From a virus (taxonomy: Duplodnaviria > Heunggongvirae > Uroviricota > Caudoviricetes): a stretch of 6,302 bases of DNA. The position numbers are program-made. The DNA lies in IMG/VR virus record IMGVR_UViG_2531839155_000008. One strand, given 5' to 3'. Positions 3,001 to 6,000 of the stretch are shown piece by piece (the stretch's first letter is position 1; the number at the start of each line of letters is the position of its first letter).

Positions 3001-6000
3001 CGCGTGAACTTCCCACCGGGCGTCCGGCCATGCTGCATATTTTCGAGCCGGTGGAGGACGGGCAGACCCGTGGGGCCAACCAGTTTTACAGCGTCATGGA
3101 ACGGCTGAAGATGCTCGATTCCCTGCAGGCAACACAGCTTCAGTCGGCCATTGTGAAAGCCATGTATGCAGCGACGATTGAAAGTGACCTTGATACCGAA
3201 AAGGCCTTTGAATATATCGCCGGTGCGCCGCAGGGGCAGAAGGATAATCCGCTTATTAATATTCTGGAGAAGTTCTCCAGCTGGTATGACACGAATAACG
3301 TGACGCTGGGTGGTGTCAAAATTCCGCACCTTTTCCCCGGGGATGATCTGAAACTACAGACTGCGCAGGATTCAGACAATGGATTTTCGGCGCTTGAACA
3401 GGCGCTGCTGCGGTATATCGCCGCCGGTCTTGGCGTTTCCTACGAACAGTTGTCCCGTGATTACTCGAAGGTCAGTTATTCAAGTGCCAGGGCCTCTGCC
3501 AATGAGTCGTGGCGCTATTTTATGGGGCGGCGAAAATTTATTGCGGCCCGGCTGGCCACGCAGATGTTTTCCTACTGGCTGGAAGAGGCACTTCTTCGGG
3601 GGATTATCCGTCCGCCACGGGCGCGTTTTGATTTTTATCAGGCGCGATCAGCCTGGTCACGGGCAGAGTGGATTGGTGCCGGAAGAATGGCCATTGACGG
3701 GCTCAAGGAGGTTCAGGAATCGGTGATGCGCATTGAGGCCGGACTGAGCACGTATGAGAAAGAGCCGGCGCTGATGGGCGAGGATTATCAGGACATTTTC
3801 CGCCAGCAGGTCAGGGAATCTGCAGAGCGGCAAAAAGCCGGACTCTCACGTCCGGTGTGGATAGCGCAGGCGTATCAGCAGCAGATAGCGGAGAGTCGCA
3901 GGCCGGAAGAGGAGACAACACCCCGTGAGACGTAATCTTTCACACATTATTGCCGCAGCATTCAATGAACCGCTGCTTCTGGAGCCCGCCTATGCGCGGG
4001 TTTTCTTTTGCGCGCTCGGGCGCGAGATGGGGGCAGCAAGTCTTTCGGTACCACAGCAGCAGGTACAGCTTGATGCTCCCGGAATGCTGGCTGAAACGGA
4101 CGAGTACATGGCCGGAGGTAAACGACCGGCCCGTGTTTACCGGGTGGTGAACGGTATTGCTGTACTGCCGGTGACCGGCACGCTGGTGCACCGGCTGGGG
4201 GGTATGCGGCCATTTTCCGGAATGACAGGCTATGACGGCATTGTCGCCTGTCTTCAGCAGGCAATGGCGGATAGCCAGGTGCGGGGCGTACTGCTGGACA
4301 TTGACAGTCCGGGCGGGCAGGCCGCCGGCGCGTTTGACTGCGCTGACATGATTTACCGCCTCCGTCAGCAGAAGCCGGTCTGGGCACTGTGCAATGACAC
4401 GGCCTGTTCTGCAGCCATGCTGCTGGCGTCGGCCTGCTCCCGACGGCTGGTTACCCAGACATCCCGTATCGGCTCCATTGGCGTGATGATGAGCCATGTC
4501 AGCTATGCCGGTCATCTGGCGCAGGCCGGTGTGGATATCACGCTGATTTACTCAGGGGCGCACAAGGTGGATGGCAATCAGTTTGAAGCCTTACCGGCAG
4601 AGGTTCGCCAGAACATGCAGCAGCGCATTGATGCGGCGCGCCGGATGTTTGCCGAAAAAGTGGCCATGTTTACCGGTCTGTCTGTTGATGCCGTCACGGG
4701 AACAGAGGCCGCCGTTTTTGAAGGTCAGTCCGGCATTGATGCCGGGCTGGCGGATGAATTAGTCAATGCGTCGGATGCCATCAGTGTGATGGCCACGGCG
4801 CTGAACAGTAATGTCAGAGGAGGCACTATGCCGCAATTAACTGCAACGGAAGCCGCCGCGCAGGAGAACCAGCGAGTGATGGGGATCCTGACATGCCAGG
4901 AAGCGAAAGGACGTGAACAGCTTGCCACGATGCTGGCAGGACAACAGGGCATGAGCGTTGAACAGGCCCGGGCGATTCTGGCCGCGGCGGCACCGCAGCA
5001 GCCGGTGGCATCCACGCAGAGTGAAGCCGATCGCATTATGGCGTGTGAAGAAGCGAACGGTCGTGAACAACTGGCGGCAACGCTGGCGGCGATGCCGGAG
5101 ATGACGGTGGAAAAAGCCCGCCCGATCCTGGCTGCTTCACCGCAGGCGGATGCCGGACCCTCACTCCGTGATCAGATCATGGCACTGGATGAGGCAAAAG
5201 GGGCTGAGGCGCAGGCTGAACAGCTGGCTGCCTGCCCGGGAATGACTGTGGAGAGCGCCCGGGCTGTGCTGGCTGCCTGCCCGGGAATGACTGTGGAGAG
5301 CGCCCGGGCTGTGCTGGCTGCGGGATCAGGTAAGGCAGAACCGGTCTCTGCATCCACAACCGCCCTGTTTGAACGCATCATGGCGAACCATTCACCGGCT
5401 GCGGTACAGGGTGGCGTGCCACAGACGTCAGCAGACGGTGATGCGGACGTGAAAATGCTCATGGCCATGCCATGAAGTCAGTGCTGACCATCAACAGGAG
5501 GTTTTTACAATATGGTAACGAAAAACATCACTGAACAGCGTGCGGAAGTACGTATTTTTGCCGGTAATGATCCGGCTCATACCGCCACAGGCAGCAGCGG
5601 GATTTCCTCGGCAACACCGGCACTGACGCCCCTGATGCTGGATGAAGCCAGCGGGAAACTGGTGGTCTGGGACGGACAGAAAGCCGGTAGTGCAGTTGGC
5701 ATACTGGTACTGCCGCTTGAAGGCACAGAGACGGTACTGACCTATTACAAGTCGGGGACCTTTGCGACGGAGGCAATCCGCTGGCCTGAAAGTGTGGATG
5801 AACACAAAAAGGCAAATGCCTTTGCCGGCAGTGCCCTGAGTCACGCGGCGCTGCCGTAACACGTTATCAGGCCACCGCGGTGGCCTGACTGATTTCTGAA
5901 TGAAAGGAACTGATTTATGGGATTGTTTACGACCCGCCAGTTACTCGGTTATACCGAACAAAAAGTGAAATTTCGTGCGCTGTTTCTGGAGCTGTTTTTC

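Follow-up and report, generated by a model that had tools for sequence, protein, structure and literature searches.

The window analysed here, a stretch of 6,302 nucleotides, comes from a phage-21-like prophage of E. coli O157:H7. It holds a lambda-like head block, with genes for terminase, a W-like protein, the portal, an S49 protease/scaffold, and homologues of D and E. Between positions 5401 and 6167, the window is 97.7% identical to the head operon of phage 21 (M81255: shp and gene 7). The D-like gene by itself likewise shows 97.7% DNA identity to shp of M81255, and the 57-nt spacer that follows it is the same at every base in phage 21, a functional phage. PF02924 is present in homologues of the D-like protein. 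The window has a single promoter-like match, at 5484-5511, which is below the shuffle expectation and was disregarded. The features around the D-E junction are the following:

5512-5859, plus strand: head decoration gene (lambda D homologue; phage 21 shp), an ORF of 115 aa with its TAA stop at 5857-5859
5860-5916, plus strand: D-E intergenic spacer of 57 nt, bounded by the D-like and E-like ORFs
5863-5893, plus strand: extended hairpin of the MFE fold (GUUA...UGAU), with 4 more pairs across a 1-nt bulge
5867-5888, plus strand: perfect 22-bp palindrome TCAGGCCACCGCGGTGGCCTGA, predicted to form an RNA hairpin with a 9-bp stem and a CGCG loop
5889-5898, plus strand: degenerate U-rich tail CTGATTTCTG; in sister lineages a T-tract directly abuts the stem
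5904-5909, plus strand: Shine-Dalgarno sequence AAGGAA of the E-like gene; a ribosome-binding site is annotated at the equivalent bases in M81255
5917-6183, plus strand: truncated major capsid gene (homologue of lambda E and phage 21 gene 7), an ORF of 88 aa

Several genes of this head block are damaged. The small terminase gene is truncated by ISEc8, and the large terminase gene is frameshifted. From about position 6168, after about 84 codons of E, a V-like tail gene is fused to the truncated E; this fusion removes the remainder of E as well as FI, FII, Z and U, and RefSeq lists the truncated E as a pseudogene with a missing C-terminus. The prophage is plainly defective. Thus, with E truncated as well, the hairpin copy in the window is probably idle, whatever the version in phage 21 does.

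A sequence-only reading of the window had placed a perfect 22-bp palindrome within the 57-nt D-E spacer, and the present analysis confirms it at 5867-5888. Its two arms (5867-5877 and 5878-5888) are 100% complementary, and no other palindrome in the window is as long as TCAGGCCACCGCGGTGGCCTGA. Dinucleotide-preserving shuffles of the window reached an 11+11 palindrome in 5 of 2000 cases; that is, the palindrome is non-random and exceeds chance. In RNA, positions 5867-5875 would pair with 5880-5888, leaving CGCG (5876-5879) as the loop. The same reading had proposed that a stable RNA hairpin would form. Folding bears this out for the sense late transcript: the segment 5860-5895 gives -18.4 kcal/mol, with z = -4.78, and none of 200 shuffles was as stable. 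For the extended hairpin (5863-5893), the centroid and the MFE structure are the same. The extended stem begins 3 nt, and the palindrome 7 nt, past the D stop codon, and the AAGGAA of the E-like gene is unpaired in the predicted centroid structure. A covariance-model search of positions 5400-6302 against Rfam returned no family at E <= 1. Processing by RNase III requires an RNA duplex of roughly 20 bp, or about two turns of the helix; the duplex here, with 9 perfect pairs or 13 when the bulged extension is included, is too short for such a site.

The palindrome had also been presented as a departure from lambda, in which D and E were said nearly to abut, with the spacer essentially absent. In the lambda genome (NC_001416), the last base of D is 6079 and the first of E is 6135, which leaves a spacer of 55 nt, CTTTACCCTTCATCACTAAAGGCCGCCTGTGCGGCTTTTTTTACGGGATTTTTTT, with a hairpin of its own. 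This hairpin, at about 6097-6124, reads AAAGGCCGC-CTGT-GCGGCTTTTTTT, with an A-tract before it and a T7 run after it; its predicted shape is the classical one of an intrinsic terminator. Like the hairpin in the window, it lies downstream of the D stop and upstream of the E ribosome-binding site, on the same strand, in a spacer of 55-57 nt. Common to both are the core G-C-C-R-C/G-Y-G-G-C, a 4-nt loop, and a stem that ends 20-28 nt before the start of E. The two hairpins differ in that lambda has a GC core of 5-6 bp, an A-tract, a T7 run and a terminator score of 22 (on the scale described below), whereas the window has a 9-bp perfect stem plus its extension, no A-tract, a broken T tail and a score of -23. 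The Shine-Dalgarno sequence of E is stronger in the window (AAGGAA) than in lambda (GGGA). As the two spacers read, then, it is mistaken to regard the palindrome as a feature that sets this phage apart from lambda. We found no specific description of a D-E hairpin or terminator in lambda or phage 21 in the literature searched, which covers little of the older lambda work and so carries little weight on this point.

The stem-loop of an intrinsic terminator was defined as a GC-rich stem of about 5-14 bp with a loop of 3-8 nt, on the transcribed strand and downstream of a stop codon. The hairpin in the window has this form, with a 9-bp stem that includes 6 GC pairs, a 4-nt loop, and a position 7 nt past the D stop. 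What the 21-type tail lacks is the U-tract that abuts the stem of an intrinsic terminator: CTGATTTCTG has 5 T in 10 positions, interrupted, and the first T run begins 5 nt past the stem. This difference is reflected in the T-tail weight, which is 1.11 for the 21 type, 3.1-5.1 for the other lineages, and 4.0-5.1 for five reference terminators. We combined stem stability per nucleotide and T-tail weight into a terminator score. On this scale, which follows a formula of the d'Aubenton-Carafa type and was checked on five well-known terminators only, those known terminators score 22-31, the lambda-type D-E hairpins 22-45, the Edwardsiella type 34-43, the Salmonella and Klebsiella types 11-18, and the phage 21 type -23. 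At -16.8 kcal/mol, the stem of the 21 type is more stable than that of any other lineage; its score is low despite this stability because the tail is CTGATTTCTG.

Under a more lenient scan, which asks for 5 T in 8, the 21-type hairpin passes and ranks first among the terminator-like sites of the window. The earlier statement that no U-tract lies downstream is thus largely correct, in that no T run abuts the stem and the strict score is -23, although the tail is T-rich and the lenient scan accepts it. The lenient scan did not detect the D-E hairpin of lambda, we believe because it extended the stem greedily into the T run; our own scan, which trims stems and was used for the scores, places the lambda hairpin alongside the known terminators. 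In the complete phage 21 record, the curators annotated terminators elsewhere and none at the D-E hairpin. A closely related allele reads TATCAGGCCGC-ACA-GCGGCCTG+TTCTGTTTTT. Relative to this allele, the 21 type appears to have six additional bases (ACTGAT) that separate the stem from its T-rich stretch, and to carry one extra closing pair together with a compensatory change from G-C to A-U.

To survey D-E spacers, we searched with the D protein, with an alignment of D homologues, and with several homologues that have diverged. The resulting sample comprises 332 loci with both D and E homologues and 58 distinct D-E spacers, with D identities that range from 100% to 47%. A GC-rich hairpin lies between the D stop and the E Shine-Dalgarno sequence in 57 of these 58 spacers; the sole exception is a Providencia-type module, in which a spacer of 26 nt contains no D-E hairpin. 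Outside the hairpin, the spacer sequence cannot be aligned between lineages. Within it, the lineages share the stem core G[C/T]C[G/A]C...G[C/T]GGC, and the sequence and length of the loop vary freely. The 21-type core, GCCAC...GTGGC, corresponds to GCCGC...GCGGC in lambda-type and other lineages. The structural alignment, built from 34 distinct sequences, took the hairpin as its anchor and so leans towards pairing, and its sequences are related by descent; in this alignment, 95.8% of cells are paired, two-sided changes are found in 6 of the 9 pairs (e.g., A-U in the 21 type and G-C elsewhere), the covariation score was reached by none of 500 shuffles, and slid registers pair at 33-54%. Most lineages have a T-tract after the stem, and their scores are like those of known intrinsic terminators.

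Between lineages, selection on the predicted stem is evident from these comparisons. The predicted D|E hairpin is a conserved positional feature of lambda-like head modules, lambda included, and the 21-type hairpin appears to be homologous to the complete-terminator-like hairpins of its sister lineages. The palindrome is real but ordinary, in that it belongs to a recognised class, namely the intra-operon terminator-type hairpins of lambdoid late operons. Terminators of this kind are common in lambdoid phages; the genome paper on phage L calls their roles unknown and mentions partial termination, or the stopping of spurious non-antiterminated transcription, as proposed roles (PMC8022706). Like the hairpin in the window, the P22/L-like examples are located within one antiterminated late operon and border the block of procapsid genes (PMC8022706). 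They are, however, predicted to be full terminators and belong to a P22-type head module, whereas the hairpin studied here, which separates D from E in a lambda-type module, is without a proper U-tract. For the window itself the stakes are small, as the prophage is defective and the class of element is known.

The gap after E also contains a GC hairpin in every lineage examined, with a sequence that turns over and a T-tract that is variable. In phage 21 this second hairpin reads GCGGGGGC-GAAAT-GCCCCCGT+GTCTTTTTT, and in lambda ATGGCCC-TTCG-GGGCCAT+TGTTTCTCTG. The post-E and D-E hairpins are alike in being positionally conserved GC hairpins of the head block, but their sequences are unrelated, and the T-tract after E is better in phage 21 and poorer in lambda, which is the reverse of the situation between D and E. 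The head block thus has a hairpin in each of its two largest intergenic gaps, which follow the two most abundant head proteins. In both gaps the stem persists even where the T-tract does not, and for this reason it is the hairpin itself that appears to have been retained. The comparative value of the locus is modest, and lies in the fact that the post-D and post-E hairpins are kept in position across lambda-like modules despite the turnover of their sequences. Natural variants with and without a U-tract at these two sites would suit tests of termination versus insulation versus mRNA stabilisation in an antiterminated operon.

Stem-loops that stabilise mRNA between cistrons include the REP hairpin between malE and malF and the hairpins of the puf operon. 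The hairpin in the window resembles these in being a stable GC stem-loop located 3' of a highly expressed cistron, in a polycistronic mRNA and with no efficient terminator tail; stem-loops of the malE-malF and puf type are expected to block 3' exonucleases. It differs from REP elements, which are dispersed multi-copy repeats with a consensus of their own, in being single-copy and bound to its position. A stable stem-loop is predicted here in the sense RNA between two cistrons, and its structure is conserved over its sequence between lineages, a conservation that is undetectable within the 21 lineage (see below).

The sequence-only reading had suggested an mRNA stabiliser or processing barrier, or a partial attenuator. 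The sequence is by itself compatible with both. Structure, position, strand context, conservation and covariation, and the weak tail were obtained from the sequence, and from these we infer the role as a stabiliser or barrier. The explanation that we favour, with modest confidence, is that the element is the 21-lineage member of the D|E terminator-type RNA hairpins and serves after D chiefly as a 3' structural barrier. According to this explanation, the hairpin would form in the sense late transcript, between the D and E cistrons. With its T-tract interrupted and separated from the stem, poor termination would be expected in the 21 lineage. At the 3' end of the D cistron, the hairpin would block 3'-to-5' exonucleases and protect the D-proximal message, and it may mark a processing boundary just upstream of the unpaired ribosome-binding site of E. 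The halting or slowing of non-antiterminated polymerases would be a secondary action. A more specific proposal is that the D and E hairpins are both terminator-derived and have been repurposed, in an operon that is antiterminated, as segmental mRNA stabilisers that help to set the output of D and E, with the 21 type having lost its U-tract and kept a lengthened stem; we put this forward only tentatively.

A different possibility is that the hairpin is a working, weak intrinsic terminator or attenuator, which either reduces transcription from E onwards in comparison with D or stops spurious non-antiterminated transcription in the lysogen. Both of these roles have been offered for intra-late-operon terminators (PMC8022706). 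The position of the hairpin, which matches that of the canonical terminator-like hairpins of sister lineages, and its first rank in the lenient scan of the window are consistent with this idea. We nevertheless consider it rather unlikely, given that no T run adjoins the stem in CTGATTTCTG and that a score of -23 compares with 22-31 for known terminators. In addition, the spacings of 3 nt and 7 nt suggest that a ribosome terminating at the D stop would cover the 5' arm, and the terminators annotated in the full phage 21 record include none at this site. In these phages the late genes are transcribed by a Q-modified polymerase, which reads through terminators. The lambda capsid requires roughly as many copies of E as of D, so that attenuation before E would make little stoichiometric sense; this requirement, together with the broken U-tract, makes efficient attenuation at this point unlikely.

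The hairpin of the 21 lineage could also be a neutral relic, i.e., an ancestral D|E terminator that has lost its T-tract and persists by recent common descent. This possibility draws on the variation among 53 haplotypes of the 21 type, in which polymorphism affects 5 of the 18 stem sites, 3 of the 4 sites in the loop and 78 of 202 third codon positions. The stem is indistinguishable from the third codon positions in this respect (p = 0.45). The rest of the spacer, including the Shine-Dalgarno sequence, is constrained, with 4 of 35 sites polymorphic (p = 0.0017), and in the Shine-Dalgarno region none of 8 sites segregates in the 21 lineage. Among the variable stem sites, the change at 5872 yields a G.U pair, those at 5881, 5882 and 5883 yield A.C or C.A mismatches, and that at 5880 opens the loop-closing pair; a C-to-T change at 5876, which also yields a G.U pair, was counted with the loop. 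No compensatory stem change was seen among the 53 haplotypes, and the stem is weakened by pair-breaking variants in about 18% of the sampled 21-type loci. That is, within the 21 lineage the predicted stem and synonymous sites evolve at about the same rate, and selection on the stem is undetectable. Furthermore, identity is 93% or higher in all 21-type modules, and the identity of the sequence across more than 1000 genomes therefore says little. In close relatives of lambda, none of 12 stem sites is polymorphic and the corresponding fraction of third codon positions is 0.06-0.20, a diversity too low to inform.

Other observations weigh against a relic. The 21-type stem is not decayed; with 9 perfect pairs plus the 4-pair extension, it is the longest as well as the most stable of the lineages (-16.8 kcal/mol). 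Its distinctive A-U pair, in place of the G-C pair of its relatives, is a two-sided compensatory change. The stem is intact in 82% of the sampled loci, and hairpins without a T-tract persist after E, too, in several lineages. We therefore regard a neutral relic as doubtful, and retain the explanation that the hairpin is mainly a 3' structural barrier after D.

A role at the level of DNA, whether as a dyad-symmetric protein site, as a REP-like mobile or dispersed repeat, or as a cruciform or recombination signal, is highly improbable. The palindrome is perfect, loop included, and the main allele change in the loop, from CGCG to CATG, is a linked pair in which the two bases always change together and perfect symmetry is kept. 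At some loci, moreover, the identities of D and E are uncoupled (D 74% and E 95% at locus L306; D 76% and E 91% at L253), which would make the spacer a mosaic junction. These points favour a DNA-level role, but the half-sites vary between lineages while pairing is conserved, and in many relatives the loop is non-palindromic or has an odd length of 3 nt, so that the DNA dyad is not general; the dyad-symmetric protein-binding site suggested earlier is for these reasons unlikely. Several lineages also have G.U pairs, which are functional in the sense RNA only, and there is no match to Rfam or another family.

The search for further copies in host genomes gave a similar answer for the proposed REP-like repeat. 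A 40-nt query around the palindrome has matches in 1001 of 5426 complete E. coli genomes, at 1-5 places per genome, and the head decoration gene adjoins every match among the 40 E. coli matches listed. With a 30-nt query and a word size of 11, 1865 E. coli genomes are found, variants included; the place counts of this search are approximately doubled because the palindrome matches both strands. All four of the variant E. coli loci inspected lie between the decoration and major capsid genes. There is no unrelated intergenic context among the E. coli copies listed or inspected or among 120 viral contigs, and a REP- or BIME-like dispersed repeat is thereby rejected. These 120 contigs, identified in a scan for exact matches, have one site each, i.e., one copy per prophage, and every one of these sites is at the D|E junction. 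The flanks are identical on both sides in 119 of the 120 contigs, and in the remaining one the sequence diverges 6 nt downstream.

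The identities of the head decoration gene D and the major capsid gene E to their phage 21 counterparts are uncoupled in several of the compared loci, in either direction, as follows.

Identity to phage 21 of D and E in three compared loci
L306: D 74%, E 95%
L253: D 76%, E 91%
L083: D 98%, E 73%

In L306, moreover, the spacer itself is split, in that the D side takes the hairpin with it and the E side takes the ribosome-binding region. The D-E spacer thus looks like a mosaic junction produced by recombination.

The hairpin in this spacer has two loop alleles, CGCG and CATG, each of which is self-complementary. 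They differ at window positions 5877-5878, and the two bases change jointly every time (17 of the 53 haplotypes of the 21 type); no intermediate between CGCG and CATG was seen among these 53 haplotypes. The change from CGCG to CATG converts CCGCGG to CCATGG. Judged from these sequences, the switch could have arisen in one mutational event at the hairpin, either tandem or by template switching, or it could reflect the loss of a CCGCGG restriction site. A short D-E spacer of 26 nt that lacks the hairpin occurs in one lineage only, the Providencia-type modules (L176, L010 and L011). In L342 (IMGVR_UViG_2648501784_000004), the phage-21 sequence pattern is lost 6 nt past the palindrome, directly after CTGATT (GTGCACAGAAAACCCCCAGCTAGGCTGGGGG...), and this departure suggests an insertion or rearrangement beside the hairpin.

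The T-rich stretch that follows the stem varies together with the Shine-Dalgarno sequence of E. A perfect tract of T7-8 accompanies the weak sequence GGGA in lambda-type spacers, whereas a broken T tail accompanies the strong sequence AAGGA in spacers of the 21 and Salmonella types. We speculate that the U-tract might additionally serve the translation of E.

A second GC hairpin lies 3′ of E in all lineages examined (e.g., L001 3045-3096 and L335 29-72, among many loci), and it is kept in the Providencia-type modules. Across lineages its sequence turns over and its T-tract is variable; in lambda, it carries a UUCG tetraloop. This region is deleted from the window, in which a V-like major tail gene is joined to the E-like major capsid gene after approximately 84 E codons. 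The elements of this fusion are:

5917-6302: E-V fusion
about 6164-6170: E/V junction
6183: stop of the E frame (88 aa)

The V-like part is read in a different frame from E. Approximately 2.5 kb of phage 21 is absent at the junction, namely the remainder of E, FI, FII, Z, U and the beginning of V. About 300 complete E. coli genomes, most of them O157:H7, share this junction with 100% identity.

The prophage is defective upstream too (window 46-2201; positions 1-3402 of L537). The RefSeq genome that matches has the small terminase gene truncated, with an ISEc8 transposase directly next to it, and its annotation marks the large terminase gene as carrying a frameshift (window open reading frames 170-511 and 462-2156).

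Lastly, within the S49 protease/scaffold (C/Nu3-like) gene, a 45-bp unit is repeated perfectly in tandem for 2.2 copies (window 5223-5321); the array is one unit shorter in phage 21 and in strain TR01 (501 versus 516 aa). This array may be akin to the 'Tri box' repeats that the phage 21 head operon record annotates within gene 6 (M81255, 5542-5936), although its apparent position is some 30 nt downstream of the Tri3 box.
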